Shown piece by piece: positions 18,203 to 43,460 of a DNA stretch of 64,000 nt. Each line of letters starts with the position of its first letter. The stretch's first letter is position 1. The stretch is from positions 2,921 to 66,920 of IMG/VR virus record IMGVR_UViG_3300005805_000083. One strand, written 5' to 3'. This DNA is from a virus. Its lineage: Duplodnaviria > Caudoviricetes. The notes under the pieces are model-generated. The model searched no databases. It had not been told where the DNA came from and worked only from the letters and a program-made list of their open reading frames with translations. Position numbers and translations under genes: made by a program.

Positions 18203-21200
18203 TTGATGCACGACATTCAATTTAAAGCCAACTCTGGACAGTTTAATATCGACCAAGCCCAGGGCATAGTCGAATGCTTCGTTGCGGGAATCGGCAACAA
18301 AGACTCCGTCGGGGACATCGTTGTTTCTGGTGCCTTTGCCAAGAGCCTTATGCGCCGCAAGCCAAGAGTCGTTTGGGGCCACAATTGGAACGACCCAATC
18401 GGCAAGGTCATCGAAATCTACGAAGTCCCACCCAACGACCCAAGACTTCCACAAAAAATGAAGATGGCTGGAATCGGTGGGCTTTACGCAAAGGTGCAGT
18501 TCAATCTCAATTCCGAGAAGGGCCGCGAGGCATTTGCAAACGTCGCATTTTTTGGCGAAGAGCAAGAATGGTCAATCGGCTACAAGACGCTTGACGCAAT
18601 CTACGACAACTCCAAGCAGGCAAACATTCTTCGTGAAGTCGAACTGTACGAGTTGAGCCCTGTTCTCCACGGCGCAAATCAATTGACTGGAACCATTTCG
18701 GTAAAAAGCGATGAAGAGAAAATGCACATGCACATGGGAATGGGCATGCCCTCTGGGATGATTGCAGTCGCCGAAAAGCCAAAGGGTCCAGTTGACCCAT
18801 TCGAGCAAGGAATTGCACAGCCAGCAGATAGCGACAGAATGGCTGCCCTTGAAAGAGAACTAAGTTCTCGAACCGACGGACCAATCAAGGTCATGAAGGC
18901 AAACGAAAGTTCAGTAGTTTTTCTCAAGCCTGGCAAGGGAATGTTCAGGCTTGGTTACTATTTTGATGGCGAACAGTACATGTTCGGCAAACCAGAAAAA
19001 CTCGGCGTTCCAATGATGATTCAGCCAATGGTTGGTCAACCAAAGCCAGGTCCAAAGCCACAGCGAATTCCAAATTTCCCAAACGTGGAGCAAAAACCGT
19101 CGTCGCCCATTGTCCCCGTTAAGTATGGCAACGATGCGGCAAGCGGATTCTTTTCGCTCGATGACGAAAAATCGCTTTCTGAGCAAGTTGCCGCAACACT
19201 CGATGGAGTTTCCTTGGGGGGCAATCAGGCGGACTTTGTTGAACAACTTTCTGGCATAGTTGGCTCATTGCAGCAAATAATCAGCCAGCACCGCTCAGAG
19301 AAGAGTGAACTATTAATCCAGTGTCCGCCAGAAATGGCTTTTGAAACAAAGCAAGCACTTGACCCAGTGTTTGACTATCACAGAATTGAATCGTATGTCA
19401 CTGAAGATGGGATTGTTATTGCATCTCCGTTGACTGGTGACGCATACGAGGCGGTGGAAAACGCAACCAAATCACTGCTCGGTAGAATCGGCAGAGGCAT
19501 CGGTGGTGGGGGAAAAGTTAGGCGCGGCAGGACCGCGCTAAGCAGAATAGAAGGGGTCCTCGACCCAAGAAGTAGGCGAGACGTCGACGGTGACGGACTC
19601 ATTTTTGATGGCACTTGGATGGAGCAGCCAGACCCAACCAGATTTGTTCCGAGAGTGCAGAGGTCGCTTAGGTCTGGTGGTGGCCCGAACGATGACGACA
19701 ACGATGACGACAAAACACCCAGGAAACCCAAATTTGTACCAAAGAAGGTTTCTGACAAAATCGAAGCGCAAGTCGGGCGCTCAATGAACAAAAAGATAAT
19801 CAGAATGTTCGATGAGTTGATTAGCAGAGGACAAATACCAGAAGACAGCATAGTAAGACAAATAGCAGATGGCTTCAAAAACGCCAAGCGCGAAGGAAGT
19901 CAAACCAGACCAGACATAACACCAGAGCAACTCGAGGCTTTCAAGTCTGAATTTGAAAGGCTGAGACCGCTATTTGCTGAGGTCGGCGCCTTAAAAGAGG
20001 GAGAGAAGGGTGCAAGCCCATTCGATGTTCTTTCCACAATAGTCACAACTGGAAAATTCAGAAGAGTCAACAAGGGAACTGGAAGTGGGAAGGAAAGAGC
20101 AGCAACTGCTGGCATGGAGTCTGCTGCAACTGGCGTGCGTGATGGTGGCTTGGATGTCATAGTTGGAACGAAAATACCGTTGCCAAAACTAAAAAGGACG
20201 GAAGGCAAATTAGACGTAAGTGAATTTATTGAAACTGGTTTGCTTCCAAAAAATTGGGAAGAAATGACTGGTGATGAGCAGGTTCGCTGGATTTCGGAGA
20301 ACGAGGATACTGTTCTCAATGCTGCTGGCAAGCAGCGCCCATGGAGATGGACACAACGTGTTGCTCGGGTATTTGATAGGGCATACGAAAAATCTTTTGA
20401 CGAAGACGAAAGAAAGGAGCGACTGGAAAGAAGGGCACAAAGAGGCGATGTGACAAAACCATCAACGCCACAGGCACCAAAGCCACAGGTACCAAAGCCA
20501 CAGGAACCAAAGCCACAGGCACAAAAGCCACCCAAGCCAAAATCAGACAATAAATTCATGGAAGCCATTTCCGAAACACTGAATCCATTTGTTGAGAGAA
20601 ATAAACAAAAACTTTCACCTGGTGTGGTCGATGCATACAACGACATGGTTTCGCAACTTGATGAGACTTTTGGCGACGAAGACATGAGTCGAGCGGAAAA
20701 GATACAAAAAGCGCAAGAAATCATTGATAAGGCATTGCGTGACATGACCATAACCAGAGACACAAACGAAGGTGACCCAAGCAGTCAATATTTTGAAGAA
20801 ACTACAAAACTAAGAGAACTGAATAAGACCGATAACAATCTATTGAGTGCAGTTCAACTGATGCTTGCAAGACTTTCCGACGAACAAGATGTGGAAGACA
20901 GGGAAGACGACCTTGATGCAGAAAGAGACATGGAGGAGGGGTTGGCGAGAAGGGCAAGAAGAGCGCGCCGCTACAACGTGGAAGACGATGAGGATTTTGC
21001 TGACGGAGCAGAAATAGATTACGCAGAGTATGGGGTCCCAGACCAAGACATTGGGGATGAAGATGACCGCATGTCGCTTCGGTCGTCTGGGCGGCGCGTA
21101 TTGTCACCAAAACAGTTGAGTGTGGCCAGGAATTTCCAATCTGCCCACAGAAGAAGAAAGTCAAACGGAACGCTTCGCTCGTCTGGCAAATCGCCACGAA

Positions 21201-21697: not shown

Positions 21698-23038
21698 ATG
21701 GATTACGACAAGAACGCAGTTGTCAAGTTGGACACCGATGGTTCCGTTTTGAAGTGCGCCAAGGGTGCTGACGCTGGCGGTTGTGGCTATGCGCCAGGTG
21801 CAAAAGTGTGCGCAAAGTGTGGCGCGATGCCAGTTCAGATGAAGATGGCAGACGAAGAAGAGATGGTTGACCAAGAAGAGATGGTCGACGCTGAAGACGA
21901 CGAAGAGGAAATGGAAAAGGGCTGGAAGAAAAAGCCAATGAAGATGAAGGCCATGGACGAAGACATGGAGGACGACGACGACATGGACGATGAGGACGAT
22001 ATGGACGACGAAGACGACATGGACGACATGGACGACGAAGAGCCAGAAATGGAAGAAGAGGAAGAGGACGAAGAAGGCCTGGAGGCCATGAAATCCCGTC
22101 GTTTGGCGAGCATGGGTTATAAGAGCGCCGATGTTGGGGCACGTGGATACCTGTGTGCGATTGACAGAAAGGTGTACCCAGGCGGTCAGCCAGTGTGCGA
22201 TGACTGTGTTGGCGGCTGCATGTCAGAAAAGGGCATGCCAGGTCTCCTGCATGTTGAGGGCCTTGCCGAGGACATGTTTGATGGAAAAGTTCTTGACTCT
22301 GGGTATTCGGCAGAGGCTGACATGTTCGTTGTTGACGTCGAAGCAAAAGATGGACGCGCGGTTGAAGTCTTCATCGATGGAACCAGCGCAGAGGTTCTTG
22401 GCTGGCACAAGTTGGACGGCAACGCATTTGAGCAGAAGTCGCTTGTTGACGAAATGATGCTTATCGACTTCAATGACGCAGCAGAAATTGCCGTTAAGTC
22501 AATTGAAGGAAGCGTTGTTGCTGTTGAGCCAGATGTCTTTGAGGGTTTCGACGCATACGCGGTTGAAATTGACGGAATCGACGGCAAGTCCTACGACGTG
22601 TTCGTCTCGCTGGACGGCGAAGTTCTTGGCTACGACAAGTACGAAGAAGAGGACGCTCAGGATATTGAGGCCGAGGCTGCGGAAATTGCGCTCAAGCGTG
22701 CATTCACCCCAGAGCAAAGAGACCGCATGGCCGAGGAGGGCACGGCTCTCCCAGATGGTTCTTATCCTATTTCCAATCGCGAGGACCTCTCAAATGCAAT
22801 TCAGGCATTTGGTCGCGCAAAAGACAAGTCTGCCGCAAAGCGCCACATCATCAAGAGAGCCAAGGCTCTCGGTGCTGAGTCGATGATTCCAGCAAATTGG
22901 GTTGCTGGTGGAAAATCGGCCGATGCAATTAACACCAAGGCCGACGCAGAGGCAGTAGACCCAGACTTCATGTCGCAATTGCTCGAATTCGAGTTGCTCA
23001 ATGCAGAGGTTGAAGACAACAAAACCCAAGAATCGTAA
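21698..23038 (+). CDS. Acidic head-associated/scaffold-like protein with two PepSY-like domains
   Basis: Cys-rich N-terminus, D/E/M low-complexity run, two PepSY-like units (AEIA...G.VVAVE...YAVEI...DGKSYDVFVSLDGEVL), C-terminal ALPDGSYPI...AIQAFGRA domain. Confidence 0.6.
   Translation: MDYDKNAVVKLDTDGSVLKCAKGADAGGCGYAPGAKVCAKCGAMPVQMKMADEEEMVDQEEMVDAEDDEEEMEKGWKKKPMKMKAMDEDMEDDDDMDDEDDMDDEDDMDDMDDEEPEMEEEEEDEEGLEAMKSRRLASMGYKSADVGARGYLCAIDRKVYPGGQPVCDDCVGGCMSEKGMPGLLHVEGLAEDMFDGKVLDSGYSAEADMFVVDVEAKDGRAVEVFIDGTSAEVLGWHKLDGNAFEQKSLVDEMMLIDFNDAAEIAVKSIEGSVVAVEPDVFEGFDAYAVEIDGIDGKSYDVFVSLDGEVLGYDKYEEEDAQDIEAEAAEIALKRAFTPEQRDRMAEEGTALPDGSYPISNREDLSNAIQAFGRAKDKSAAKRHIIKRAKALGAESMIPANWVAGGKSADAINTKADAEAVDPDFMSQLLEFELLNAEVEDNKTQES
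21955..22080 (+). repeat. Low-complexity coding repeat (DDMDDE)n / poly-acidic
   Basis: Repeated gacgacatggacga-type units. Confidence 0.7.
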
Positions 23039-23064: not shown

Positions 23065-26000
23065 ATGCAGGAACGTAAAGTCGTAGTTACGCGCATACTG
23101 AAAAGCGGTCGGCTTTTTCCAGAGGCAAAAGAAACGCCCGAAGAGAGAATACGACGGTTTGTCGACGCCCAAAAACAAGTTGTTGCTTATCCATTTTCGC
23201 CAGATATTTCGGTCAAAGCGCTTGGTTCTTCTGGTAAAAATCCTGCGGCCGACAATAAGGACAAGCGGAAAAAGGCCAAGTCAAAGTTCAAGCGACTTGG
23301 AGTTGGAATTTTTGACCCTGACGCAAAAGCAAAGCCTGGCCAATATTTCGAAATAAGACCACGAAGAATCAATCAAGATGGGCAACTTGGGGACGTTCCC
23401 AACATGGGCTGGCTTGACCCAAGAAAAAGCGTAAAACCCAAAGACCTTGTTGCGTATGGAAAGAAACAAATACAAAAACAAAAACAAAATATTCAAGTTC
23501 GCGTTGTATCCGCAAAAAAGAACAAGAGAACTGGCGGGATAGAAGCAAAAGCCCTTGGCAGAAGCATCGGGCAAACTGTCGGAAACATCGGTCAGGCAGC
23601 GGCCAGAGCAATTGGCATAGTGGTTGACGCTGACGGTAAATTCAGGTGCCCCCCAGGTGTCCCAGCAGCAAACCAATTCACCGACGAGGTTGGAAGCAAC
23701 TGCTTTGACTTTTCCCCAGCGATTGGTCGCGCCCTGGTCCGCATCGCACAGCGCTATGGGTTCAACCTTCAAGATTCCATAAGGAGAATTGATGCCGCAA
23801 CTCCATTTGAGCGAGATAAAGACGGAACATTGCGCAGAGGCGCTTCGCTCAGGTCTAGCGGTTTAATACTCCCAGGCGCTCCCAGCAGACCATCATCGGA
23901 TGGGATTATTTACGGCCCAGATGGCAAACCGTTAGCGACGCGAACACCAGTTGACCCAGAGGTCGCAGAATTTGAAGTGGCTGAGGAAACCCTGCGAACC
24001 ATTGCCGCTGGAACTGGGGAAATTGTTGACCCAGATACGTATGAAGAAGAATTCAGGAAAGCGCTTCGTAAGGCATACCCAGAATTGTCCGATGCCGAAA
24101 TTGACGAAATGGCAAAAGTTGCCGCACAAAGAGAAAAACTAAAAGACGAAGTAAGAAAACAACAAAGAGAATCATTGCAAATCCTGCGAGACATGGGCAT
24201 TGATTTCGACGAAAATGACCCTAATTCCGTTCAGGAGGCAATAAGTTTTGCCCTTTGGAAAATGCGCAGCGATGGCTGGGACATTGACCTTGAGGGCTAC
24301 TACGGGGAAGGTTTTCACGACAACCCCATGGTTGCGATTCTCGCCCATAGGAGAATGCTTGCGGAACTCGGCTACGACGGCCTTGAAGCAGCAGTTGAGC
24401 AAGGAAAAATTGAGGGCCTGGATGCAGACACTCTTGACAAACTCAAGAAAAAGTATGGCTCCAGATTTAGAGAAGTGATACTTCAGGCGATGCAGGATGG
24501 CACTCCAGTATCTGATTTGTTCCCAGATGATGAAGACGCTCAAAATTTTGCCGCCATGGCAAAACTCGCGTATTCAAAAGCACAAGCGTATGAAGTTGGG
24601 ACAATGATGCAACTTGTGCGACAAAGAAAACTCACCCCAGACATGGTCGGTGAAATCAGCGGAATATACCACTCGGAATTTGACCCATATGACCCATTTT
24701 TTGCCGATACTTCGGTAGACGGAAGAACTGGAAAAATTACACTCAGCATAAATATTGCTGGAATGCTGGTGACCCACCCACCGAAATCGCTTAGTGATTC
24801 TGGCTTTCACCTATATGAACCAAGCGGAACTGCTGGAACGGAAATAGCAAAACTTCAAGCAATAGGAGATGTTGTCTCAGCAGAAAACAGGGCGCGTCTT
24901 CTCGGTTCTTATCTTGGCGAGTTGGGTTCATTTGCGCAAGAAGTGCAGAGGGTGAAAGAGCAGAAAGAGGCAATGACAAAGCCGCTCGGTGAACTTGGGG
25001 GAATGTCGCACGGACTTTTTGTTATGTATCACGAATTGATGCATGCGCGACAATTGCAAATTATTGCAAAATTTATCCAAAGTAGAGACCCAGGTATGAC
25101 CAACGCTGAGGCACTGGACTGGGCGGTAAGAATAGGAATTGGGGGAGAAAGTTTCACTGACGCATACGGTAGGGAATTCAACATTGCCACAATTCTTTCC
25201 AGCCCAGAAGTTCTATCTACTGCTGTTGGCGATGTTGGCGAAATACTCGCCACATTGGTAGACCAAAAAATTGGTGGCAATTACGGCCCAGGCCACTACT
25301 ACCAGGCAATAAACATGAATTACATTGCAAGCGCGTCAAGTCTTGGAGAAATGGAAAGACGTTACGAAGAACTCCGAAGAAAAGCGGCGATTCTCGAAGT
25401 CACAAAACCAGGTTCAGCCGAACTCGACGGCATCAAAATGGCACTAAACAAAACAGTCAGATTACTTGAAGACGCGCAAGAAGATGGTTGGGAAGAAACT
25501 AGGTTTATGCGCAACGGCGCAAGAAGTGCAAGCGCTATCGCAATCATGGAAATGCAGGCCGACATAGCGGCTGCCGTAGAAATGGGGATGATTGAAAAAA
25601 CACCTGAAGTAGAAGCCCTGATATCCCCACTAAGCCGTGGAAAAGATTTAGACGCTGTAGTTGACACCATAGTCCCAGAAGTTGCAGTCGTTGAAACCAG
25701 AACGCAGAAATTGAAGAGAGTTGCAAAAGCCGCCAGAAAAATCTCGCGTGATGATATTAGGCAAATAATCGAGGATTCTCAGCGTCTTGGGAGAATACTC
25801 GACAGAGATGCAAGCAGAGATGAAAGTTTGACTTCTGGGGCCCTTAGGTCTGCAGCATCTTTTGACGGGAGAGGGGCAGCATCGCGTTGGGGCGCCTCAG
25901 TGAGGGACGCCTACATGAGCACTGCCACCCCAGAGCAAAAACGGGTTATTGAGGGTAAGTGGCGCAATAGGAAATGGTCAAAGCCATCTAGCGATATGTC

Positions 26001-29000
26001 GATAATTAACTCGTTGGCAATGGGCGACGGGGACAACATGGCGAATGAAATAGAAAACGAATTTATTCCATTTGTCGACCTAATCGGAAACTCCAAATTG
26101 CCAAACGGAGTTGCGGTTGAACTTGTTTTGCCGAGCGGAACCCTTTCTCCAGGAGATTCTGGTTTCCCATCTTCTGGCGTTAGGGGCGTTCGATACGAAA
26201 TAGGCGGACACCATACTGGCCTGATTAAGTCAAATGAAGACCTTTTCAGTTCTGTGCCGCCAAGCCCAACCCCATCTGGCCAACGTGTAATCCTTAATGT
26301 TCCAGAGGGTTCATCTGGACTTCCAGATTTCACTCCAGGCAGCAACGGTTCTGAAGTTGGCTCAATAATTCTTCCACCTGGAGAAATCGAATTAATTGAT
26401 GTGCGAGACGATGGTGTTGCAATCGCCTCTCTGACACGACAAGAAACAGTGTCTGAAACTTTGAGCAAAAAGAAGGGGCAACTACTCAGGGTTGAGCAGC
26501 GCACCGAAAGACTTGACGACAAAATAGCGATAAGAAAAGCATTGAACAGAATCGAAAGAAAAGAACAGGTTGAACAGCGCCGTTCGCTCAGGTCATCTGG
26601 GGTGGGAAATGTTGCTCAACCAAAACCGAACACTCGCGTTCCATCAGAGCCAGACGCAAGGACTGTTGCGATAAAAGACCGCATGGAATCGCAGGGCATA
26701 CAATTTGGGAAACCGCTTCTTAAAAGGATTGCAGAACTTAGGGAAAAATACGAAGCCAAATTGAACAGCAGAAATAATTCAGGTGGAATTGTCTCCGACG
26801 ATACTCACGATTTCGAAAGTCCAGAAGCAGCAAAAAAGAGAGTTGATAAAGCAATAGACAACGCCATAGCCCAAATAAAGGCTGGCACCCTCCCAGGTCT
26901 TTCTCCAGAAGTTGCTGAAATAATGAAAGATAAATCCCCAGAAGAGATAAGGCAAATTCTTGTCACAACCCTGCGTAAACATGTCGACGGCCTTGATAAA
27001 AGGGCAAGATTCAGAATACGTGGAGCCCACGTATATGGGGTCAGGGATGGGCAAGATTCCCCACTGATGGGCTTCATAAAAACTGGCCGATGGAGAACAA
27101 CCCATGATACAAGTGGCTCCCAGGCAGCATCTGACTCCAAGAGACGCAAAGAGGCTGAGTTGCTTCTTGGCATTCCAGAAACGGCAGATGATGATTTGCG
27201 TCCAGCACATGGCTATTACCTGCACGTCGACGAACTTGATTTTAGGTCAAGAAGAAACGCAGCAAGAAGACAGCAAATTGCAGACGGGGAGGGTGGCGAA
27301 GACAGAATTCCACTCTTCAATGAAGACAATCTTTCACATCAGCCAAACCCGACGGTCACCCACGACAAAATGGTTGTTGACCCAATGCCACACGAATACG
27401 GTTCTTCGGAAATAGTCCTAAAACCAGAGGCATCACAGCGCACCGTAATCACATTCGGAGACTCGCTAAATGGGATGCGAACACCAATACCACTTGATGG
27501 GAGCGCAACCGATGACGAATTGCTCGAGGCTGGATTGCTAAATAGGGCAAGCATGCTGGATAGTGGCATGTTCAGTGTCAGGAAAACCGACACGACACAA
27601 CGAAGAATAGCCGCGCTCCTTGAGGCAAGCGTCTCGCAAAATCATGAACGTGTTGCAGTAAGTACTGACGGCAACAGCACTGGCCGCTACTACGTTGAGG
27701 CGATTGTTGGCGGGTCATTCACCATGGACGATGTTGAGGAAATACGAATAGAGCCTGATTTCGAAGCGATTCACGGGAATATTTCCCAGTCTGCTGTTCC
27801 AAACGAGGTAAAGGGTCACACCGCATATGGCCTGCTTCGCGATGTAATGCCGCGAGCAGATATTGATGCAGTAATTAAAATTCTTGACGAACCAGAGACA
27901 GAAGAAAATAAAACACTTAAGAAAAATTTACGTGAAATTATTTCGGACAGATACAACCTTCACGGGAGACTTGAAGGAAGAAGAAGAATAAGGGCGGACA
28001 TCGAATCAAGGGTTTCTGACCCAACAAAACCAAAACCAAAGGTCACTTTCCTGGACACGCGAGGGCGTGATTTTGAATCACACTCAAAACACCCACGCGC
28101 ACTCGAAGAAACTGGCATGGATGACACCTACGACATCGTCGATGTTATTGCGCGAAGTGGCGCAGTGCGGGTGAGAAAACTCCTAAAAGAAAATAATATT
28201 CCAGTTTCTGAGGATTCAGAATTTGACTCGATGAAGCCAAAGCCTCGAACGCTGCGTTCAAGTGGTTCACCAGTCAACGAGAGAAGAACTCTCAGGTCTT
28301 CTGGCTCAATGACGATTGATGAAATACCTGGAAGTGGGGTATCCAGAAGATTGGAGAGACGGACGTCGCTGCGCTCGTCTGGCCGAACAACGAGAGAAAA
28401 ATTGGATAACGGCCCCTCAGAACTGGATTACGGCATCGATGACAAGGGCCTACCACGTGTAGCGACCGTAGAAGAAAACAAACAAAAATTCGGAAGAACC
28501 CCCAAAGAAGTCAAAAAATATTTCAAGGACAAATGGGGGATAAAAGTAAAGAATGGTCTGCCAGACGGGCAAAAGAACCCCGAGCAAGAAGCAGTCGCAT
28601 ATGCCGCAATGCAAGCACTCGATGATGTTATGAACAATATGGGTGATGTTGCTGAAATTCTCAAAAACGAAAATCTTTCAGTGAATTTTAATTCTCAGTG
28701 GACAGCCAGAGATACAACTATGGGAAGTTTTTCCCTGAACAGAAGAGTGTTATTCCATCGCAGAAAACAAAATATGGAAATAGCGATGTACCCCAAAAAC
28801 GTTGTTGAAATCGCGCAAAAAAATGCACAGGAACTTCGCGCCAATGGGGTTAGGGGCTTAATTAATGGACTTAGGCGCTCTCGGGCGGTTGGTCTTGTCG
28901 CTGACCCTTTCGTTGAAGCAAGAATTGACAATGTCCCCGATGCGGACATGGATTTGGTTGTTGCGCAAAGATTGACCTATGCAAACATGGTTCACGAGAT

Positions 29001-29472
29001 GGGACATTTGCTTGACTATCTTGCCAGGGACGGGAATGAGCAAAGCGTCAGACTAAAGCCACTCATACCAATGTGGTTGAGTGGTGCGGAAACAGATATA
29101 GAAAAACGTGTATACCAGAGTGCGCAAATTGCGGAAACTGACTCACTGTACGCCGATAAGCCAAACGTTTCATTTTATGGTTCAAGTAGCCCACAGGAAT
29201 CATTGGCGGAGGCATGGACTGCATGGTTTTTGTTTTCGCGTAGGCCAGACATAGAGGTGAAACCAGTGGGGAATGATGGAAGAATAACGCCCTCCACCCA
29301 ATCAATTGCTGGTGCCGCCCAGAACGCCTTAAGGCCGTTGTTTGAAAGTCTTGGCGATGGAATAAAAACCGCCGAGCAAACCGATGACTACGAAGAAACA
29401 ACAGAAACACCACTTACTGTTCTTTTGTATGCCCTTGCACCATTTATTATTGACAAAGAGGAAAAAAAGTGA
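23065..29472 (+). CDS. Giant multidomain (polyvalent) head-cluster protein, 2135 aa: zincin / ART-like / DUF3626-like / zincin
   Basis: HELMH (nt 25030) and HEMGH (nt 28993) with downstream QESLAE; RVILNVPEGS...IILPPG; RPAHGY...YGSSEIVLK...TFGDS...YVEAIVGG; 6 LRSSG-type motifs. Confidence 0.7.
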   Translation: MQERKVVVTRILKSGRLFPEAKETPEERIRRFVDAQKQVVAYPFSPDISVKALGSSGKNPAADNKDKRKKAKSKFKRLGVGIFDPDAKAKPGQYFEIRPRRINQDGQLGDVPNMGWLDPRKSVKPKDLVAYGKKQIQKQKQNIQVRVVSAKKNKRTGGIEAKALGRSIGQTVGNIGQAAARAIGIVVDADGKFRCPPGVPAANQFTDEVGSNCFDFSPAIGRALVRIAQRYGFNLQDSIRRIDAATPFERDKDGTLRRGASLRSSGLILPGAPSRPSSDGIIYGPDGKPLATRTPVDPEVAEFEVAEETLRTIAAGTGEIVDPDTYEEEFRKALRKAYPELSDAEIDEMAKVAAQREKLKDEVRKQQRESLQILRDMGIDFDENDPNSVQEAISFALWKMRSDGWDIDLEGYYGEGFHDNPMVAILAHRRMLAELGYDGLEAAVEQGKIEGLDADTLDKLKKKYGSRFREVILQAMQDGTPVSDLFPDDEDAQNFAAMAKLAYSKAQAYEVGTMMQLVRQRKLTPDMVGEISGIYHSEFDPYDPFFADTSVDGRTGKITLSINIAGMLVTHPPKSLSDSGFHLYEPSGTAGTEIAKLQAIGDVVSAENRARLLGSYLGELGSFAQEVQRVKEQKEAMTKPLGELGGMSHGLFVMYHELMHARQLQIIAKFIQSRDPGMTNAEALDWAVRIGIGGESFTDAYGREFNIATILSSPEVLSTAVGDVGEILATLVDQKIGGNYGPGHYYQAINMNYIASASSLGEMERRYEELRRKAAILEVTKPGSAELDGIKMALNKTVRLLEDAQEDGWEETRFMRNGARSASAIAIMEMQADIAAAVEMGMIEKTPEVEALISPLSRGKDLDAVVDTIVPEVAVVETRTQKLKRVAKAARKISRDDIRQIIEDSQRLGRILDRDASRDESLTSGALRSAASFDGRGAASRWGASVRDAYMSTATPEQKRVIEGKWRNRKWSKPSSDMSIINSLAMGDGDNMANEIENEFIPFVDLIGNSKLPNGVAVELVLPSGTLSPGDSGFPSSGVRGVRYEIGGHHTGLIKSNEDLFSSVPPSPTPSGQRVILNVPEGSSGLPDFTPGSNGSEVGSIILPPGEIELIDVRDDGVAIASLTRQETVSETLSKKKGQLLRVEQRTERLDDKIAIRKALNRIERKEQVEQRRSLRSSGVGNVAQPKPNTRVPSEPDARTVAIKDRMESQGIQFGKPLLKRIAELREKYEAKLNSRNNSGGIVSDDTHDFESPEAAKKRVDKAIDNAIAQIKAGTLPGLSPEVAEIMKDKSPEEIRQILVTTLRKHVDGLDKRARFRIRGAHVYGVRDGQDSPLMGFIKTGRWRTTHDTSGSQAASDSKRRKEAELLLGIPETADDDLRPAHGYYLHVDELDFRSRRNAARRQQIADGEGGEDRIPLFNEDNLSHQPNPTVTHDKMVVDPMPHEYGSSEIVLKPEASQRTVITFGDSLNGMRTPIPLDGSATDDELLEAGLLNRASMLDSGMFSVRKTDTTQRRIAALLEASVSQNHERVAVSTDGNSTGRYYVEAIVGGSFTMDDVEEIRIEPDFEAIHGNISQSAVPNEVKGHTAYGLLRDVMPRADIDAVIKILDEPETEENKTLKKNLREIISDRYNLHGRLEGRRRIRADIESRVSDPTKPKPKVTFLDTRGRDFESHSKHPRALEETGMDDTYDIVDVIARSGAVRVRKLLKENNIPVSEDSEFDSMKPKPRTLRSSGSPVNERRTLRSSGSMTIDEIPGSGVSRRLERRTSLRSSGRTTREKLDNGPSELDYGIDDKGLPRVATVEENKQKFGRTPKEVKKYFKDKWGIKVKNGLPDGQKNPEQEAVAYAAMQALDDVMNNMGDVAEILKNENLSVNFNSQWTARDTTMGSFSLNRRVLFHRRKQNMEIAMYPKNVVEIAQKNAQELRANGVRGLINGLRRSRAVGLVADPFVEARIDNVPDADMDLVVAQRLTYANMVHEMGHLLDYLARDGNEQSVRLKPLIPMWLSGAETDIEKRVYQSAQIAETDSLYADKPNVSFYGSSSPQESLAEAWTAWFLFSRRPDIEVKPVGNDGRITPSTQSIAGAAQNALRPLFESLGDGIKTAEQTDDYEETTETPLTVLLYALAPFIIDKEEKK

Positions 29473-35600: not shown

Positions 35601-38600
35601 GGTCTGGAAGAACATTACTTAATGAATTGAACAGTGGTGATTTTTCAAAACTTCGCGGAGAATTGCAGCGCCGTGGATATTCGCTAAAATTGGGCGAAAA
35701 AAGAAGACCAAAATATTACGGCGATTACGCTGCTGGTGACAGATATTGGACAGCGAAAAAAACGCGTCCTTCGCGAAAACCAGTAAATCGCTCTTCTTCC
35801 AAGCCAAGTTCTGGCGGAGGACGCACAAGAAGAGACCAACAAACCCAAAGATTAATTGACCTACTCAACCAGGAAGACCAGCGTCCAAAAGACGGAAGAA
35901 TCGGTTACAACCCGCTTCCTGACCTTGAACGTCAGCGCGAACGCGATGAGGAAATTCGTCGCATATTGATGGGAACGGCGGGAGATTTCTATCAGGCGGC
36001 GCAGGCACAACGTGGGGGACGGCGCTCTGGCACCCTTCGCTCGGGTGGAAGAAACGACAATCTTGACGGCATCAGGGAAATGGCTGATGGCGCTGGCGAG
36101 ATGGACCTCGTAAATATTTTTGACAAAGTACGAGACGATGAAAGCATTTCCCCAGATGAGCGGAAATTCCTACGCGAATCAATTCGCGACATCCTCGACA
36201 ATAACCCAGATATTACGGAAGATGAACGTGTTGTCCTTATCGACCTTGATAAGAAGTTGGCCAATCAGGGCAAGAGAACACTTCGTTCAAGCGAACTCAG
36301 CGAAGGACAAATCGGTCGCCCACGCTCGGAGCGCAGAGACGCAATTGATTATCGCACTGGTGGCCCAGAAGACGCATCTCTTAGACCAGTTCTTTCCGAC
36401 CTCGCCGAAGAGGCACGTGAAGGTGGGGAAAGACAACTAGGCGACATTTTCGACCGTCACAGCAGGGGTGACCTGGTAACGCAAAGTGAACTTGAGTTGG
36501 CGAGAGAAGAACTCACCAACATGATTGAGAATAGAACAGATATCGACGAAGATAGAAAAACACAACTGCGCAACATTAGGGACGACATGTCTTTTATGGA
36601 TGGGCAGCCAGGACCAATCGAATACGATGAAACAGAATTTGGTGGCAGGGATTTCCCGCCAGACCCGCCAACACTTCGTTCAAGCGGTAAGAGGCCCAAC
36701 AACAAACAGTCTCGAGCCAGAGATGCGGCGAGGGCTGAAGCCACGGACACGCTTAAAGACAATGCCATGGGCGGCGCAGATTGGGACAGCCCATTCCGTA
36801 GAGCATGGATGAAACTTGGAATCGGCCTGCGTCCTGGCACTGCCGACAGATTCAGCAGGGCATCTCTCATCATGTCCCTGTTTCACCCAGGTTTCATCAA
36901 CGATGACAAAAGAATCAATGAAGTTCTTGAAAAGGCTGGTTTTGGTCAAGGGAGTCGCTCTTTCCAAAACATCAAAGACATGCTCGATGCTGTTCGCCGT
37001 GGAGAAATGCCCAGAGAAGAACAACTGAAGGCATTTGTCAGTGATGCTGTTTTGATGGGTGGTGTAATCAGGGGAAGAGACGGAAAGTCGATTGACAAAC
37101 AAGTAAATAACGACTTCGCTGGCGTGGTCGAGGCCTACATAATCCATCAAAATCCAAGACTTGGTGATGGCGATGGGGCGCCCACGCGTTCACTTCGCTC
37201 AAGCGGAAATCTTGACGGCATTAGAGAAATGTCAGAGGGTGCAGGCGAAATGGACTTTGTTGACGCCCTCAACAAGATTCGCGACGGCAAAATTGACGAC
37301 ATATCCGATGACCAAATGGAATACCTGCGCGAAACTGTGCGCAACATCCTCAGAAACAATCCAGACATCACCGAGGATGAGCGTGTTGCCCTTCTTGACC
37401 TAGAAAATCAAATAAAGCCAAATAGAAGCACTTTGCGCTCAGGTGCTAGAGGAAGACCAACACAACAACAACTCAGTTCAAGAAGAATGCTTGCCACCAC
37501 CGAGCGTGCAGCACGACCAAGAGGAACTTCCCTCAGGAGCAGTGGCGGTACTGGCGGAGATAGAACCCCAGCACCAAAGGCTGGTTCGGGTCGTGGTCCT
37601 GGCGTCGGCCCAGGAGGCAAGTACGGACACGGCGCCATGGAGCGAAAGTATGGCCGTGAAAAGACTGGCACGGACGGAGAACTTTGGGATTCGTTGACAC
37701 CAGAGCAAAAGAAGGCAGTCGAAGAAGCGCTACTTGCTGAAAGAAAAACACTTGAAAAGAAACTCAAGGGATTCTTCAACAAGTATTGGGCTGCCGCCAC
37801 GAAGAAGGGCGCCAAGAAACAGGGCGTTGTCGCTGCCTACAAGCGCGGAAGGGGTAAGGCTGGCGGTCGGTACGAGAAACGACCAGACGATGACCCACTT
37901 GACGCAACCGACGTTAGTGAGATGTTGCTGCGACTCGACCAGGCTGTAGCCAATGGTGACATTGAGAAGTTTGACGCCGATAAAAATACACGTGACCTCA
38001 AACTTCAACCAGATGGTTCTGCAACGATTTCAAACGTGAAGAGCGGGTACAAAGACCGTCAGCAGGCAATCGACGATATGCAAACCGTTTTGAACATGAT
38101 TGAGGATGGGGATTTCTCGGCGCTTGAACACCTGCACCCAACCATAAAGAAAAAGATTGCAAAAGTTATCAGGGACAAAGGTGGAGAAGTTCCAAAGGGT
38201 TGGGAGAAGGAACTGTCTACTGTCGCCAGATATGCGGGCGGCGAAGAGCGACGCAAGGCTCCTGACGCAATAGACATGGTAAAAGAAAGAGGAATAAGCG
38301 AAAAGAAGAAAGACAAGCGTCTTTCGCTTTTCCAAAGACTGCGCCGAATGGACCCAGAGCGAGAAAGACAGATTGAACTTCGCGCTGCGCGCCGTGCTGG
38401 TGGAATCCGAGAAGGTATCGCCCTTGACCCAGAGCAGTCAATCAAGAAGCGCAAGTTGCGCGCACGCGCAATGAAGCGAAGAATGATTTCGCGATTCAAG
38501 AAGTCGAGAAACCCAGACGACCTAGCATCTGATTCAAAGGCGAGGAAAGACGCTGCTGGTGTTGTGAAGACCGACCCAGCAACGAACAAGGTTGAAATAA

Positions 38601-40387
38601 GCGACGGGTTTGTTGACTTGATGCATGCCCTTGACAATGACCTCATCGGAATCCAGCAAAAGAAGCGCAAGGGTGCAACTGAGAGAGATACGGAAAACGA
38701 ACACAAGACGCTCTTGAAGAGAGTTTGGGAAAACGCTGGTTATGCAGAAACACCAACGACGCTTACAGATGATGAAGTTAAATCATTGGTCAAGGCTGGG
38801 TGGCAGGTGATTGTCAGAGGAACTGGCCACGAAAAAGTTGACAGCGAATCTTACGTGGAGCGATTCCTGCACGAAGAAGGAAGATTCATTCCTGGGCAGG
38901 GTGGCTCGGCATACGGAATCGGTGAGTACTTTGCATATCCAGGACAATGGACTGGTTATCACGGAAGTGGACCAGACGACAGACACACCATTGTTGCGCT
39001 AATTCCGCCGACTGCCGACGTCATGATGGCCAGCGAGATATCCAGAGAGCACCGCCGCATGGGCGAATTGACTGGACGAATCAATGACAGGTTTAAGGTT
39101 CTTGGCGGAAGAGACGCAGTCAAAGCAAGAACACCAGAAGAACTTGTTGCGGAAATAGATGCTGCAGTTCCAGACCTTGCTTCAGATGCGACCAGAAGCG
39201 GTCAGATAGTCAAGCAGTTGCGCGACAGGCTTGAAGCGCTTTCCAAGATGCCGAATGACACCCCAGAGCAAAAAGCAAAAATTGCAGAAACAAAAGAAAA
39301 ACTGCTTTCGACTCTTGACTACCTGGAGAGGTACACGAAACAGCGTTCAGCAGAAATGATTGCGCCAATAATCGGTGTCGACGTGATTGACGCCAATAAT
39401 GGCGAATCAACTGGTTCGCCAATGCTTGTCCACAACAGAACCATTCTTGCCGCATTCCAGAACCCAGCGACACTTCAGCAGGCGGAAGCAATGATTGCTG
39501 ACGAAAACGGAAGGCAGCCTGGAAAAGTTTGGACGAAGTGGAAGCGCACCCCAACAGATGGCGACACCAAGCCAAGACGCCTGACAAGAAGAAGAACCAA
39601 GCCAGCAACACAACCAGCGCCGCAACAGCCAGCACCTCAGCCAGCAAATCAGCCGACTCCGCCCGCGCCAGCATCCTCTGTTCCAAATACTCCTGGTGGG
39701 CCAGTAAATACCGATACATGGAATACGTCAACCCCACCAACAACTGGCTCCAATCCAGCCATGATGCTCACCGCCCCAGATGGAACTCGCTATTACACAA
39801 AACTGAGAAAGAGCGGCGAGACAGCGCAGCAGGCAGAAGAAAGAATGCAAACGGAAGTTCTTGCCTCAAAACTTTATGCGCTGGCTGGAGTTCCAGTAGC
39901 AGACCTGCAAATGGGGACCAATAATGGCGACCCAGTAATGATGTCTCGAATGATTCAAGTAAGAATGCCAAGAGGAAAAGCCGACAACGATGCGGCAAGG
40001 GACAATTTCGTTGTTGATGCTTGGCTCGCCAACTGGGACGCGCCACTAAACGACAACATTCAAATTGACAGCAATGGAAACGCAGTCAGAATGGACGTTG
40101 GTGGTTCGCTTGACTTCAGGGCGCAGGGCCAAAGAAAAGGCTCTGGCAGAACTGTTGCATTCGGCAACAACCCAGGCGAAATGAACAGCATGCAGAAGCA
40201 GGGCACCTACGATTTCACTGGCATGGATGCGGCAGAACTAAAGAAACAAGCGCAACGCCTGTCCACAATTACAAATGACGACATCAGAAAAACCGTGGCA
40301 GCCGTTGTTACAGACCCAGCGAGGGCGGCACAACTTGCTGCTACTCTTATCGCTAGACGAGACGCAATTGTCCAAGGATGGGGATGA
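32630..40387 (+). CDS. Giant multidomain head-cluster protein, 2585 aa: DVDGDG cassette / KTSC / helical repeats / ART-like / HipA-like kinase
   Basis: KTSC-like nt ~33727-33890; NNPDITEDER repeats; RGTG...GQGGSAYGIGEYFA; C-terminal YYTK...EVLASKLY..AGVP...DAWLANWD...N...RMDVGGSLDFRAQG; 12 LRSSG-type motifs. Confidence 0.7.
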   Translation: MRQYAVLKNVVRGVNFGVVVKSHGNLKFYGWSEKGIEWSRWANDNKADLGQLPANIAVGEFKGLSDEMMKSIILDSSESVAAGESVAEKKILAFNLGSERFANTSKYPSFVDAPIYDGWASKTKSINFKAKNFRKEVAHNEISLRVRMHELAFDNLRKEFVAKPNKATKTYVRSEIRKKMSRGAERKFGQRIVGYVNASVEEAAGLPSIKRAQLGPNTKEILSEYTKASLGRTIGRAVGSAARGMTPNRGRGRARGAASRFVSGVLDPRKRRDVDGDGMIFDGTWREMPDPSRFVQKPDARPTDGRIGYNPLIDTRATRNRENASRALRETLDEVSNLKPERRRGLRSGDAPPPRAAAAVQMEMDARNSRLASKITYDPQDQVLEVTYRGTGKTVRFRNVPYESARQAGASSSPDRFIRSLEEARENAIQSQMRSSGRAGRRALDSDKTFAEFGNPQRLSDEALESAIAAMNLGGRDTAGKMAPYLKERNNRKAKFGKKYPRQGGESSKPNQTLRSSGRKYENVSGPNRDRLENMRDTLVSGELNNPKQLRDQLDKMNSDRDRISKRRLANIDELRELPQTPENKRKRANLLDEIIRDGQEVEYLSAASEMLSEHIDNVAAGRDVRSLGGDRNKPRALRSSTLNNIIDSAEGANENLLVDALRKHQDGKPLSKEEKDYLLESLRNILDNNPDITEDERVELIDLENAISGRNRTTGLRSSTLSKLADSAEGANEDELVDALRKIQRDEPVTGEQRDYLLESLRNILDNNPDITEDERVELIDLENKIRRQPGSGRTLRSSGSSLKPKPSKPPRNSDGSLVNVFDDFETEELFKQLGQKNKIIKQLENWLNGDGPFPKSLPDWYRDRDRARKFLSESRQERIKITKALKDRGYESPNEARKEFGRSKKKPAGDDKRSDNTLPSLVRIPTPEEREDDNQFVSLNSESLNPTYPRLPNGYPDFDNINLDEMTDEQLIGMLVHFAEINERPFGPRSGRTLLNELNSGDFSKLRGELQRRGYSLKLGEKRRPKYYGDYAAGDRYWTAKKTRPSRKPVNRSSSKPSSGGGRTRRDQQTQRLIDLLNQEDQRPKDGRIGYNPLPDLERQRERDEEIRRILMGTAGDFYQAAQAQRGGRRSGTLRSGGRNDNLDGIREMADGAGEMDLVNIFDKVRDDESISPDERKFLRESIRDILDNNPDITEDERVVLIDLDKKLANQGKRTLRSSELSEGQIGRPRSERRDAIDYRTGGPEDASLRPVLSDLAEEAREGGERQLGDIFDRHSRGDLVTQSELELAREELTNMIENRTDIDEDRKTQLRNIRDDMSFMDGQPGPIEYDETEFGGRDFPPDPPTLRSSGKRPNNKQSRARDAARAEATDTLKDNAMGGADWDSPFRRAWMKLGIGLRPGTADRFSRASLIMSLFHPGFINDDKRINEVLEKAGFGQGSRSFQNIKDMLDAVRRGEMPREEQLKAFVSDAVLMGGVIRGRDGKSIDKQVNNDFAGVVEAYIIHQNPRLGDGDGAPTRSLRSSGNLDGIREMSEGAGEMDFVDALNKIRDGKIDDISDDQMEYLRETVRNILRNNPDITEDERVALLDLENQIKPNRSTLRSGARGRPTQQQLSSRRMLATTERAARPRGTSLRSSGGTGGDRTPAPKAGSGRGPGVGPGGKYGHGAMERKYGREKTGTDGELWDSLTPEQKKAVEEALLAERKTLEKKLKGFFNKYWAAATKKGAKKQGVVAAYKRGRGKAGGRYEKRPDDDPLDATDVSEMLLRLDQAVANGDIEKFDADKNTRDLKLQPDGSATISNVKSGYKDRQQAIDDMQTVLNMIEDGDFSALEHLHPTIKKKIAKVIRDKGGEVPKGWEKELSTVARYAGGEERRKAPDAIDMVKERGISEKKKDKRLSLFQRLRRMDPERERQIELRAARRAGGIREGIALDPEQSIKKRKLRARAMKRRMISRFKKSRNPDDLASDSKARKDAAGVVKTDPATNKVEISDGFVDLMHALDNDLIGIQQKKRKGATERDTENEHKTLLKRVWENAGYAETPTTLTDDEVKSLVKAGWQVIVRGTGHEKVDSESYVERFLHEEGRFIPGQGGSAYGIGEYFAYPGQWTGYHGSGPDDRHTIVALIPPTADVMMASEISREHRRMGELTGRINDRFKVLGGRDAVKARTPEELVAEIDAAVPDLASDATRSGQIVKQLRDRLEALSKMPNDTPEQKAKIAETKEKLLSTLDYLERYTKQRSAEMIAPIIGVDVIDANNGESTGSPMLVHNRTILAAFQNPATLQQAEAMIADENGRQPGKVWTKWKRTPTDGDTKPRRLTRRRTKPATQPAPQQPAPQPANQPTPPAPASSVPNTPGGPVNTDTWNTSTPPTTGSNPAMMLTAPDGTRYYTKLRKSGETAQQAEERMQTEVLASKLYALAGVPVADLQMGTNNGDPVMMSRMIQVRMPRGKADNDAARDNFVVDAWLANWDAPLNDNIQIDSNGNAVRMDVGGSLDFRAQGQRKGSGRTVAFGNNPGEMNSMQKQGTYDFTGMDAAELKKQAQRLSTITNDDIRKTVAAVVTDPARAAQLAATLIARRDAIVQGWG
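34560..37412 (+). repeat. Dispersed ~60-aa helical protein repeat (4 clear copies, 1 degenerate)
   Basis: ...L.ES(L/I)RNILDNNPDITEDERV.L.DL at ~34560-34750, 34795-34990, 36060-36260 and 37208-37412; degenerate copy at ~36395-36590. Confidence 0.85.
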
Positions 40388-40787: not shown

Positions 40788-40796
40788 GTTTCGCTC

Positions 40797-43460
40797 ATGG
40801 CAGATGAGCAGTCTGACACAAACTCGAAGATATTTGCTCTTCGCGCCGCTGGGTGGATTGGCTGTACTGGCGCGCACAAAAAAGATGGCAAATGGATGCC
40901 ATGTGAAACACCAGAAGAACTACAGAAACTGTCAAGCGCAGCGGAGCCAAAAAAGAAAACTGGCTTCATTGAAATGCACGATAGGTATAACACCAGAAAA
41001 GCAAAAGGAAAAAAGAAAAGAAAAAAGGGCTGGGAAAAACTAAGAGAAACAAAACCACTTGGGGGATTCGCAACTCTTGAGGGTGGTGGAATAGTTTCGG
41101 CGCCAATAGAAGGCGTAATCCCATTCGGCAGAAAGTCATATATTCCTGGGGTTTCGCCTCGCGATAATGACCCTGATGTTTTCACGGATATTGAATCTGC
41201 CAGAAAGCGTTCCCGAATGCTTGGTTGCATTGGTGTTCGCAGAATGCCTTCTGCGACTGGCCGAACAGTTTGGATGCCGTGCACAAGCAATTCGGATTAC
41301 GCAAGGCTTGCTGGAACGACATTTCTTGGGCGGAGAGGCCAACAAGAGTCACAGCGACGAATGATTAGAACGATTGTTCGAAATGAGATGCGCGAACAAG
41401 ACAGAAGGGTAAGGAAAAAGTCACTTTTTGACGAACTAAATGGCGTAGAAACAAAGGGAATCCTAGGACGCGCAATCGGAAGGGCAAGCAATAGTGGCTC
41501 GCTGTCGCGAAGAATGCGCAGAAGCATGTCAAGCGCCAGGGAGCGAATTGATGGCGTTCTCGACCCACGGGTAAGAAGGGACGTTGATGGAGACGGATTC
41601 ATTTTTGACGGCACTTCGCGAGAAATGCCAGACCCAACAAGAGCAGCAGAGCAGGTCAACACAAATCTTCGTTCTTCTGGGACCAGAGGATTCGAGCCAG
41701 CATGGTTCGCATCCAAAACAAACAACAGATGGCTAACACCAGACAAAATCAAAAAGGGCGGAAAACTAAAAGCAAGAGAAATACTCAATTACGACAGAAT
41801 TCGCCTGCGAGAAAACAGAGACGAGCAGGCGCAAGCACTTGGTGTTACCAGGGCAACAATTGACGCAATGCACGAACCAGGTGCATCGCTTGACCCAATC
41901 GACGCAGACCGACTTTCTTTATCCGCACTCGAATTGCATCCAGCATTGATTTGGGGTGAAGCATGGCTTGAGCAAGAAGAAGAAAAGACTGGCCCAGTCA
42001 AACGAAACAAAAAAGGAAAAGTTGATGGCCGCACCACAAGGGCTCCAAAGCCATTGGATGAAAGAGACAGACAAGTACTGGAAATGCGCAGGAACGGAGC
42101 GACGCTTCAGGAAATTGCCGATGAACTTGGGGTGACAAAACAAAGGGCAGACCAGTTGGTGAAGCGAGCAATAAAGCGCAATGAAGCAGAGATAGACAGA
42201 GATTCAGGCCCAAGAAACCTTAGAAGCAGCGGAATGATTCGTCGCGATGAGCGCGGAAGACCAATCAGGCAAGTTGACAGGCGCAAAGAAACACTTGAGG
42301 CGTCAATAAAGAAACTAAAAGAAATAGGTTTGAGTGACGAGGAAATAAACCTGTTGATGACGGGCGACAGGGATACACCAGTTGACGTCACAACGCGCGA
42401 TGTTGACGTATCTGAGGCAAAGCGCAGCCTGAGAAGCAGCCGCATGAACATGCCCGTTGGCTCACCGAGCCTTCGCTCAATGAGTTTGAGTCAAATGTCG
42501 AAAACTCCACCAAAAGATTGGCCAACGTCTTCAAAAACCCACATGGTCGACTGGGCAAACGGTAGGCCATCTTTCAACATTCCTTACTCTTTGGCGCAAA
42601 AGTTCAAGAGAGACGGAGATTTGTCCGATAGGGATTGGAAGACTTTGCTCAGGTTCTATGCGCAGTGGGGCCCAGAAAATACCTCTGGAAGAAGACTGCG
42701 CTCATCTGGAACAACTTCGACGAGCGACTACAGGAACATTGGGGCGCGAAGAATGGCCCAAATAATCCTTGAACGAGTGTCCCCAGACAAGCGCAATAAA
42801 CCAGCAGGAAAGAGAAGGCACTATCACATAGTCGGACCAGGCGGCATGGGCAAAAGCACATTGTCTGACTATTTGAAGAAAGAGGGTTTAATGCCAGATG
42901 AAAAAGATGCTGCGCATGTTGACCCAGACTTCATAAAAATGGGCATCGAGGGGTACGAGGGAGGAAAAGGTTCTGAACTTGTGCACAGGGAATCTGCTCA
43001 CTCTGCAACAAGAACGGTAAATGACGCCAGGGATATGGGGATGGACATAGTAACTGAGGGAACTGGATACAGGCTCTATGACTACAAAACCACATCTGAC
43101 AACACCTATGAAAAGGTGATTCATGTTCCGTATTTGCCTTACGATGTTGCGGAAAAAAGAGTCAGGGAAAGAAATGCAGAAGGCGGAAGGCAACTTCCAG
43201 TTTCTCAAGTTAGGAGTAAGGGCTACGGCCTCTACGGTTGGCTGACTGACGTACTCAGGAGGGGCGATGGGCAAACCATGTACATCTGGGACATGGACGT
43301 ACCAAAAGGCGCCGCGCCAAGAGTGATAGCAAAGATAGAAGATGGAGTATTTACGGCAATTGATGAGCCAAAATTCAAGGCCTGGTCAGAACAACACGGC
43401 GGACACAGGGGCGGCGACTCCAATCTCGAGTGGTTTAAGAGGAATTTCCCCCAAAAGTAA
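40797..43460 (+). CDS. Multidomain head-cluster protein: 2x GC..WMPC / DVDGDG cassette / HTHs / zeta-toxin-like P-loop kinase
   Basis: GPGGMGKST...HVDPDFIK...VHRES...GMDIVTEGTG at the C-terminus; LQEIADELGVTKQRADQ HTH; 5 LRSSG-type motifs. Confidence 0.72.
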   Translation: MADEQSDTNSKIFALRAAGWIGCTGAHKKDGKWMPCETPEELQKLSSAAEPKKKTGFIEMHDRYNTRKAKGKKKRKKGWEKLRETKPLGGFATLEGGGIVSAPIEGVIPFGRKSYIPGVSPRDNDPDVFTDIESARKRSRMLGCIGVRRMPSATGRTVWMPCTSNSDYARLAGTTFLGRRGQQESQRRMIRTIVRNEMREQDRRVRKKSLFDELNGVETKGILGRAIGRASNSGSLSRRMRRSMSSARERIDGVLDPRVRRDVDGDGFIFDGTSREMPDPTRAAEQVNTNLRSSGTRGFEPAWFASKTNNRWLTPDKIKKGGKLKAREILNYDRIRLRENRDEQAQALGVTRATIDAMHEPGASLDPIDADRLSLSALELHPALIWGEAWLEQEEEKTGPVKRNKKGKVDGRTTRAPKPLDERDRQVLEMRRNGATLQEIADELGVTKQRADQLVKRAIKRNEAEIDRDSGPRNLRSSGMIRRDERGRPIRQVDRRKETLEASIKKLKEIGLSDEEINLLMTGDRDTPVDVTTRDVDVSEAKRSLRSSRMNMPVGSPSLRSMSLSQMSKTPPKDWPTSSKTHMVDWANGRPSFNIPYSLAQKFKRDGDLSDRDWKTLLRFYAQWGPENTSGRRLRSSGTTSTSDYRNIGARRMAQIILERVSPDKRNKPAGKRRHYHIVGPGGMGKSTLSDYLKKEGLMPDEKDAAHVDPDFIKMGIEGYEGGKGSELVHRESAHSATRTVNDARDMGMDIVTEGTGYRLYDYKTTSDNTYEKVIHVPYLPYDVAEKRVRERNAEGGRQLPVSQVRSKGYGLYGWLTDVLRRGDGQTMYIWDMDVPKGAAPRVIAKIEDGVFTAIDEPKFKAWSEQHGGHRGGDSNLEWFKRNFPQK

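Follow-up and report, generated by a model that had tools for sequence, protein, structure and literature searches.

An LRSSG-type peptide as a candidate processing code of giant head-module proteins in an uncultured freshwater phage

Herpesviruses fuse the protease assemblin to the scaffold (pUL26/pUL80a) and use release and maturation sites of the form V/L-x-A↓S, where the arrow denotes the cut. In phage HK97 the S78-family protease gp4 removes the delta domain of gp5, and the mature capsid protein starts with serine. Here we describe a recurrent peptide of the LRSSG type in a 64,000-nucleotide stretch of DNA, termed the window in the following, which comprises bases 2921-66920 of a 66.9-kb contig (IMG/VR record IMGVR_UViG_3300005805_000083) of an uncultured freshwater phage. 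The phage is a myovirus. Four proteins encoded between its portal and major capsid protein (MCP) genes contain 26 copies of the motif, and a putative tape-measure protein contains further ones. We propose that the motif is a proteolytic processing code that would cut polyvalent cargo proteins into modules, a reading for which confidence and doubt are evenly balanced.

The herpesvirus arrangement is mirrored by a 1122-residue protein of the window, in which a serine protease sharing the fold class of assemblin forms the N-terminus and is followed by a long extension with sites of the hydrophobic-x-small-Ser type, and where the best-conserved site lies just before a conserved C-terminal tail (L991-x-S993, followed by 129 conserved residues). 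The two systems differ in the domain of life of the host and in sequence family; moreover, the extension of the phage protein is mostly variable, and its motif recurs outside the fusion, in separate cargo proteins and a tail protein. With HK97 and P1 the locus shares the protease family, an MCP with a delta-like N-terminal region of ~100 residues, and a presumed mature N-terminus consisting of Ser or Thr followed by I/V/L-Gly. The MCP junction, in contrast, does not share the spelling variant, or “dialect”, of the cargo motif. A recurrent motif in many cargo proteins is, to our knowledge, not known from either HK97 or P1. The mature P1 capsid protein also starts with serine (PMC9024508).

Short codes read by head proteases have been described for several large phages. 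The proteases of phiKZ, 201phi2-1 and SPN3US (gp175/gp245) recognize the motif S/A/G-x-E at positions P3-P2-P1 and T4 gp21 recognizes L/I-x-E; the protease also processes itself, and SPN3US gp245 cuts head and ejection proteins at its P3-x-P1 motif, often several times per propeptide (PMC10052503). The locus described here resembles these systems in a short consensus that one phage repeats across several of its head-packaged proteins, frequently at several places in the same protein, in the presence of N-terminal carrier or propeptide parts, and in a phage-encoded prohead protease. In contrast to the T4/phiKZ type, this protease is of the HK97 type (S78), leucine and serine are fixed in the motif and glutamate is absent, and the sites bound many internal modules instead of mainly serving the removal of N-terminal propeptides. 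Furthermore, a protein in tape-measure position carries sites, the spelling varies between close relatives whereas the protease domain does not, and cleavage is putative.

A second precedent are the polyvalent proteins, which Iyer, Burroughs, Anand, de Souza and Aravind (2017) predict to be packaged, released in the host and processed by embedded Zincin-like (MPTase) peptidases (PMC5512222). The window likewise encodes giants that lie beside virion genes and combine unrelated effector domains (DUF3721, a helix-turn-helix (HTH) and Zeta_toxin in an 887-residue protein; KTSC and others in a 2585-residue protein), and all four motif-bearing proteins are encoded among the late structural genes, from the portal (16082) to the MCP (43613). 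The locus differs in that a Pfam search (E up to 1) revealed, beyond a chance-level match, no peptidase embedded in the cargo, a feature that is frequent but not obligatory in the class, and in that the junctions carry an explicit peptide code; no recurrent motif between domains appears in the searched passages of PMC5512222.

Recurrent head-protease motifs and polyvalent proteins are both already known. New here are the link to a protease lineage of the HK97 type, the close spacing of the sites (26 spread over four proteins), the switching of dialects between phages with near-identical capsid and protease domains, and the dialect-matched sites in the protein at the tape-measure position. None of these four features was found described in a literature search, which also yielded no report of the LRSSG motif or of S78-linked cargo codes and no proteomic data on this uncultured phage.

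The LRSSG-type motif and its carriers

An initial annotation, made from the letters of the window, had listed 26 motif copies. All of these coordinates are correct and lie in frame 0 of four open reading frames (ORFs) between the portal and the MCP genes. The head module is organized as follows.

16082-18106, plus strand: portal (PHROG portal; tblastn to actinophage portals), the start of the head module, without a motif copy
18203-21571, plus strand: 1122-residue fusion with an S78 prohead protease at the N-terminus (Pfam Peptidase_S78, PHROG); three copies, with first codons at 19667 (aa 489), 21077 (aa 959) and 21173 (aa 991)
21698-23038, plus strand: 446-residue acidic scaffold-like protein, without a motif copy
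23065-29472, plus strand: 2135-residue cargo-type giant; six in-frame copies, with first codons at 23848, 25843, 26587, 28252, 28291 and 28369
30561-32633: 690-residue protein, without a motif copy
32630-40387, plus strand: 2585-residue cargo-type giant with KTSC domain; twelve in-frame copies, with first codons at 33665, 33926, 34169, 34541, 34778, 35018, 36035, 36281, 36674, 37193, 37433 and 37532
40797-43460, plus strand: 887-residue polyvalent protein (Pfam); five copies, with first codons at 41667, 42219, 42429, 42471 and 42696
43613-44932, plus strand: MCP (PHROG major head protein)

The 25 kb between the protease and the MCP hold the 446-, 2135-, 2585- and 887-residue proteins and three smaller genes.

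The motif is strongly enriched in its carriers. The regular expression [LM]RS[SGAM] matches the four proteins 26 times, as compared to a mean of 1.13 and a maximum of 6 matches in 5000 within-protein residue shuffles, and LRSSG itself is found 15 times, where shuffling predicts 0.02 occurrences. Among all 5-mers of the predicted proteome, LRSSG shows the strongest over-representation (16 observed, 0.041 expected). The motif is also commoner in the four proteins (26 copies in 6,729 residues) than in other ORFs (3 in 14,360 residues; Fisher p = 1.5e-10), the latter count being incomplete, since the record probably holds only part of the genome.

The copies are spelled by different DNA: there are 24 distinct 12-mers among the 26, arginine is encoded by CGN in 16 and by AGR in 10 copies, and serine by both TCN and AGY codons. 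Because the DNA of the copies differs, selection acts on the peptide, as the initial annotation had argued from varied codons. Its further idea that near-identical DNA copies might seed module shuffling finds no support at the DNA level, given the same diversity of 12-mers; yet, modules are gained and lost exactly at the sites between relatives. The noted flank preferences also hold, with R at position -2 in 12 of 26 copies, S or T at -1 in 18 and G at +4 in 18, which extends the consensus to R-[S/T]-L-R-S-S-G. Four or five copies belong to duplicated helical modules of 80 residues, and the remainder (at least 20) have unrelated flanks.

The motif had also been described as confined to the four head-cluster proteins and absent from the tail. 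This is not the case, since the putative tape-measure protein contains LRSSG and LRSLRSGG.

3-2831, minus strand: N-terminal 943 residues of a 1598-residue ORF that runs off the window start, positioned downstream of the sheath and two small genes
711-848, minus strand: central low-complexity stretch of this ORF, rich in Ala/Gly/Ser/Pro, with LRSSG (848-834), GLAS and LRSLRSGG (734-711) in its translation
4141-5619, minus strand: tail sheath

The 1598-residue ORF matches no Pfam family, and synteny and size suggest that it codes for the tape-measure protein. One further copy outside the four proteins, LRSSE in the exonuclease (12586-13419), looks like a chance occurrence.

Linkers, modules and dialects

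The sites lie in hydrophilic surroundings. In hydrophobicity, the flanks fall clearly below the remainder of the proteins that contain them, a difference matched by none of 20,000 random site sets. Overlaid on AlphaFold models, all eight sites tested, in the 887-residue protein and the protease fusion, fall into stretches with a predicted local distance difference test score (pLDDT) below 50 between more confident parts; as the mean pLDDT is low overall (56 for the 887-residue protein and 52 for the fusion), this places the sites outside a confidently folded core and does not prove disorder. The model of the 887-residue protein was built on an alignment of 10 sequences, and its five copies are located in low-scoring stretches at residues 163-324, 464-494, 532-560 and 628-646. 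Three of these four stretches lie between domains modelled with confidence (HTH, a pair of helical units, zeta-like domain); the N-terminal part that precedes the stretch 163-324 is poorly modelled. For the protease fusion, whose model is weaker, the three copies map to residues 424-517 and 917-1000.

Copies precede the helical repeats, the KTSC domain and the zeta domain, just as the initial annotation had claimed. The 887-residue protein comprises DUF3721, a sigma-70 region 4 HTH and, at the C-terminal end, a zeta-toxin-like kinase (Pfam). In the 2585-residue giant, the KTSC domain (residues 369-419; Pfam) is found downstream of the copy at residue 346, and four paralogous helical modules of ~80 residues each start directly after a copy. 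The four modules share an identical NNPDITEDERV core (window 34541-35020, 36035-36285, 37193-37440), and their copy number differs among relatives. Orthologs of this giant contain different sets of modules and only 5-7 sites, as compared to 12, and BLAST blocks between orthologs begin two residues before a site in both partners. The 2135-residue giant has no significant Pfam or PHROG family, and its orthologs share just parts of the protein. Pieces as short as 13-33 residues lie between copies. In the alignment of 887-residue orthologs, the sites are found in variable, indel-rich linkers where the dialects switch, and one ortholog (contig 3300042560_002553, L005:6792-9845) contains an extra module of ~130 residues between the HTH and the unit that follows, flanked by NTLRSEGG and NTLRSSG.

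Three of the four carriers, which are otherwise unrelated, share a cassette of ~70 residues that is 54-59% identical among them (BLASTP).

19466-19675, plus strand: cassette in the protease fusion (aa 422-491), ends at the first copy
33305-33520, plus strand: cassette in the 2585-residue giant (aa 226-297), upstream of the first copy
41451-41675, plus strand: cassette in the 887-residue protein (aa 219-293), ends at the first copy

The cassette consists of a basic stretch, a D-x-D-G-D-G-x-I-F-D-G loop that resembles the calcium-binding DxDxDG motif, and PDPTR, in this order. Its position suggests a common N-terminal carrier or address part that is followed by the cargo, and the cassette may serve as a packaging address.

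Unbiased k-mer counts on ~100 related loci revealed that close relatives each favour a top motif of their own, in three dialects. Dialect A, L-R-S-[SG]-G, is used by the window phage and contigs 2553, 4095 and L087; dialect B, L-x-S-S-T and mostly G-L-A-S-S-T, by contigs 0034, 0031, L099 and L090; and dialect C, L-x-S-G-R, by contigs 0091 and L091. When the protease fusion and the 887-residue protein are aligned with their orthologs, the dialect variants fall on the same linker positions, and at site 991 of the fusion, L991 and S993 are invariant in 10 orthologs. The arginine upstream of the core is not kept in dialect B. More distant relatives, with an MCP ~70% identical, use S-TRS-S (12 copies in a 2763-residue protein), P-TAS-M, GG-MRS, G-LRS or G-LSS-GAS. 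Outside the protease domain, the fusion groups by dialect, as do the cargo proteins; the dialects therefore represent lineages of the cargo block, which are beyond the resolution of the slowly evolving core genes.

The tape-measure position follows the same pattern. At residues 654-707, its orthologs carry LRSSG and LRSSS in two contigs, LASST or LSSST in two dialect-B phages, and LASGR and LLSGR in three contigs. The tape-measure spelling can be compared with the cargo dialect of the same contig for the two phages of dialect B, where both agree. Since orthologs bear the matching dialect at the same place, the tape-measure copies are not due to chance.

In a 136-kb relative, GLASS and LASST are the top 5-mers, and copies are found in the protease fusion and the tape-measure-position protein, in the three cargo giants and in an additional ORF of 3355 residues. 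Three more copies, located in two tiny ORFs and a tail-fibre-like protein, are probably due to chance. This applies to LLSST in the 437-residue tail-fibre-like protein, which was considered as a site; the contig of a second relative ends before the position. The 3355-residue ORF (L112:1236-11300) lies far from the head module, contains the two dialect-B copies G-LQSST and G-LNSST and has no Pfam family; it may represent another ejected giant protein. A counterpart in the window phage would lie beyond the end of its record.

That many independent sites, in head as well as tail proteins, are respelled in concert argues for a reader of the peptide. This bears on the simplest alternative, namely that the motif is a passive flexible linker, spread by module duplication or recombination without any reader. 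Some copies do lie in duplicated modules and modules are exchanged at the sites, but the diverse DNA, which draws on both Arg and both Ser codon families, the unrelated flanks of most copies and a spelling switch per lineage that includes the tape measure are unexpected of such a linker. The codon and dialect data largely refute this explanation, to which we attach very little probability.

Candidate readers of the motif

A proteolytic processing code could operate as follows. The signal peptide [R]-[S/T/G]-L-x-S-[S/G]-[G/T/R] would mark head-packaged cargo proteins and the putative tape-measure protein. A cargo protein would consist of a conserved N-terminal carrier, the cassette (in three of four cases) and a string of unrelated or duplicated modules, including KTSC, helical units, HTH, zeta-like kinase and many unknowns. 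Each junction would be an exposed linker with one copy of the motif, and cleavage would turn the modules into individual small proteins. The best candidate for the enzyme would be the phage's own HK97-type (S78) protease, which is fused to a site-bearing extension. As leucine and serine are invariant, two registers are conceivable: a cut L-x↓S, in keeping with the N-terminal serine of mature HK97 and P1 capsid proteins, or a cut L-x-S↓, with a P3-x-P1 layout like that of T4 (L/I-x-E) and herpesviruses (V/L-x-A↓S). Cleavage itself, as well as its enzyme, timing and the bond cut, are what we infer.

A protease site and a docking or unfolding signal were the two options put forward by the initial annotation. 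The former is best supported by the location of the sites in linkers and at module and indel boundaries, by their positional conservation, and by an S78 protease that heads a protein with three sites of its own; the part of this reading that does not fit is that neither the S78 domain nor the MCP junction follows the dialect. The protease domain spans residues 1 to ~176 of the fusion and is assigned by Pfam Peptidase_S78 (E=2.2e-10, above the cut-off) and the PHROG head maturation protease (E=9e-29). A PDB sequence search with this domain gave no match. The enzyme is catalytically plausible, with H60 and S124 invariant in the orthologs.

Several observations weigh against cleavage by the S78 protease in the prohead. 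First, the catalytic domain (residues 1-180) is 87-98% identical across dialects, residues 1-230 contain no position that separates the dialects, and the whole 1122-residue protein shows just three fixed differences between A and B/C. On its own, the S78 domain cannot account for the residues fixed in each dialect, namely R at each of the 26 sites of the window phage, T in dialect B and R in dialect C; it could read the L-x-S core only. Second, the presumed maturation junction of the MCP, E-T-R-S / I-G-E-A-F-L at residues 97-101 (nt 43901-43915), is identical in dialects A, B and C. In none of 19 lineages does the MCP junction contain the cargo tripeptide, a score no better than that of shuffled pairs, and the two share only a loose “hydrophobic-x-Ser” likeness. 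Third, the canonical substrates of T4/phiKZ-type proteases (MCP, scaffold and portal) are here without the cargo motif, and no site was found in the 446-residue scaffold-like protein. Fourth, the tape-measure sites differ from the head-confined substrates expected of a T4/phiKZ-type system, and a tape measure assembled in the tail is not expected to come within reach of a prohead protease. Fifth, the cultured relatives GMA6, Chidiebere and Cantare have no equivalent motif. Finally, when the cargo proteins were split at the motif and searched with Pfam (E up to 1), no second protease emerged beyond a chance-level match (Mu-like_Pro, E=0.53).

Further candidate sites or motifs were rejected. An apparent match between junction and dialect (LSS in L079, LRS in L009-L011) failed the co-variation test across the 19 lineages. 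ALRSKM at the MCP N-terminus is conserved regardless of dialect and forms part of the delta-like helix, RRLASMG in the 446-residue protein belongs to a conserved RRL-x-x-MG element in which the third position varies, and the “DARTP” repeat of Chidiebere is an internal repeat of a tail protein.

At its C-terminus, the 446-residue protein shares homology with the extension found at the C-terminal end of the protease of Gordonia phage GMA6; the scaffold-like part is hence a gene of its own here, and the protease has gained a different extension. Residues 191-235 of the 446-residue protein give a weak, sub-threshold match to PepSY (peptidase-inhibitor-like; E=8.6e-4).

Some of these difficulties would be eased if the cleavage code was read after ejection, or otherwise outside the prohead, by a co-ejected phage protease, possibly the retained S78 fusion, or by a host protease. 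The targets would then be all putatively ejected proteins, i.e., head cargo and tape measure, and exactly this set carries the motif. Neither the S78 domain nor the MCP junction tracks the dialect, and the protease fusion possesses the same cassette as the cargo and so may be packaged likewise. Moreover, Iyer et al. 2017 proposed post-injection processing of polyvalent proteins (PMC5512222). On the other hand, the Pfam search revealed no second protease in the cargo, and a host protease would hardly vary among the hosts of phages whose MCPs are 91-96% identical. On balance, we consider processing at this later stage unlikely, although it ranks next after cleavage in the prohead. A bolder and somewhat less probable version posits a lineage-specific “release code” of all tail-exiting proteins, which would be read only after ejection by a co-delivered, possibly unconventional protease and would yield ~30 effectors from one bolus. 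If true, the three dialects would reflect co-evolution with the reader, or escape from a recognising host factor.

The second option, an uncleaved docking or tether peptide that binds the capsid or scaffold interior and allows multivalent loading of the giants, might be compared to encapsulin cargo-loading peptides or the T4 capsid-targeting sequence. The motif is indeed a short exposed peptide present in many copies in head-module proteins, the MCP has the HK97 fold (PHROG major head protein), and the shared cassette hints at an addressing system. Yet, a tape-measure-position protein also bears the motif, and there is no visible co-variation of the shell: the MCP (91-96% identical across dialects) and the 446-residue protein (83-91%) are neither an obvious dialect-specific partner. 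Copies at every module boundary, even between pieces of 13-33 residues, would be needless for docking. This option is conceivable but fits less well than cleavage, and we rate it as improbable.

The motif could also be a target of covalent modification, with its serine phosphorylated by a HipA-like or zeta-like kinase of the phage. An invariant serine following basic residues, the zeta-like kinase at the end of the 887-residue protein and the C-terminal half of the 690-residue protein, which weakly resembles HipA-like kinases, would fit such a role. However, the kinase resemblance is weak, the upstream arginine is lost in dialect B, and the coincidence of the sites with module and indel boundaries would be left unexplained, which makes phosphorylation a far-fetched explanation.

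The 153-, 220- and 690-residue genes between the giants were considered as dialect-specific factors and rejected, since all dialects have them. The 690-residue protein (30561-32633) is 41-47% identical across more distant members of the clade. As a weak lead, ESM Atlas neighbours of its C-terminal half include HipA-like kinases and MuF-type head morphogenesis proteins; template-modelling (TM) scores against the former amount to 0.5-0.7, measured on the side of the hit with ESM Atlas models.

Genomic context and meaning for phage biology

The cultured phages nearest to the window phage are the actinophages GMA6 and Chidiebere of Gordonia and Cantare of Brevibacterium, with an MCP ~45% identical, and IMG/VR contains many contigs that are far closer. 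According to CheckV, the 136-kb relative (contig 3300035670_000034) is 91% complete and a 59.8-kb relative 40%; the 66.9-kb record probably represents under half, roughly 45%, of a genome of ~150 kb. Beyond the head and tail modules, the following features were recorded.

14546-15853, minus strand: large terminase
8912-10051: PAPS-reductase-like gene (PHROG 2302, E=1.7e-77), between two small genes (window 8361-10842) and unrelated to the motif
17300-17500: C-terminal region of the portal with P-G-M-P / G-M-P-G repeats

These repeats are also present in the protease fusion of relatives, and they are among the top 4-mers of most related loci.

The analysis brings out two features that current models leave unexplained, namely dialect switching without a change in the protease domain or the MCP junction, and dialect-matched sites in a tail protein. 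The system extends the idea of a head-protease code, known from T4 and phiKZ, to an HK97-type protease lineage. If the motif copies mark cuts, just four genes would give rise to ~30 separate protein modules, and the motif would offer a straightforward rule by which giant phage ORFs that defy annotation could be divided into functional units. Such a rule would aid the prediction of effectors and counter-defence proteins in uncultured phages.

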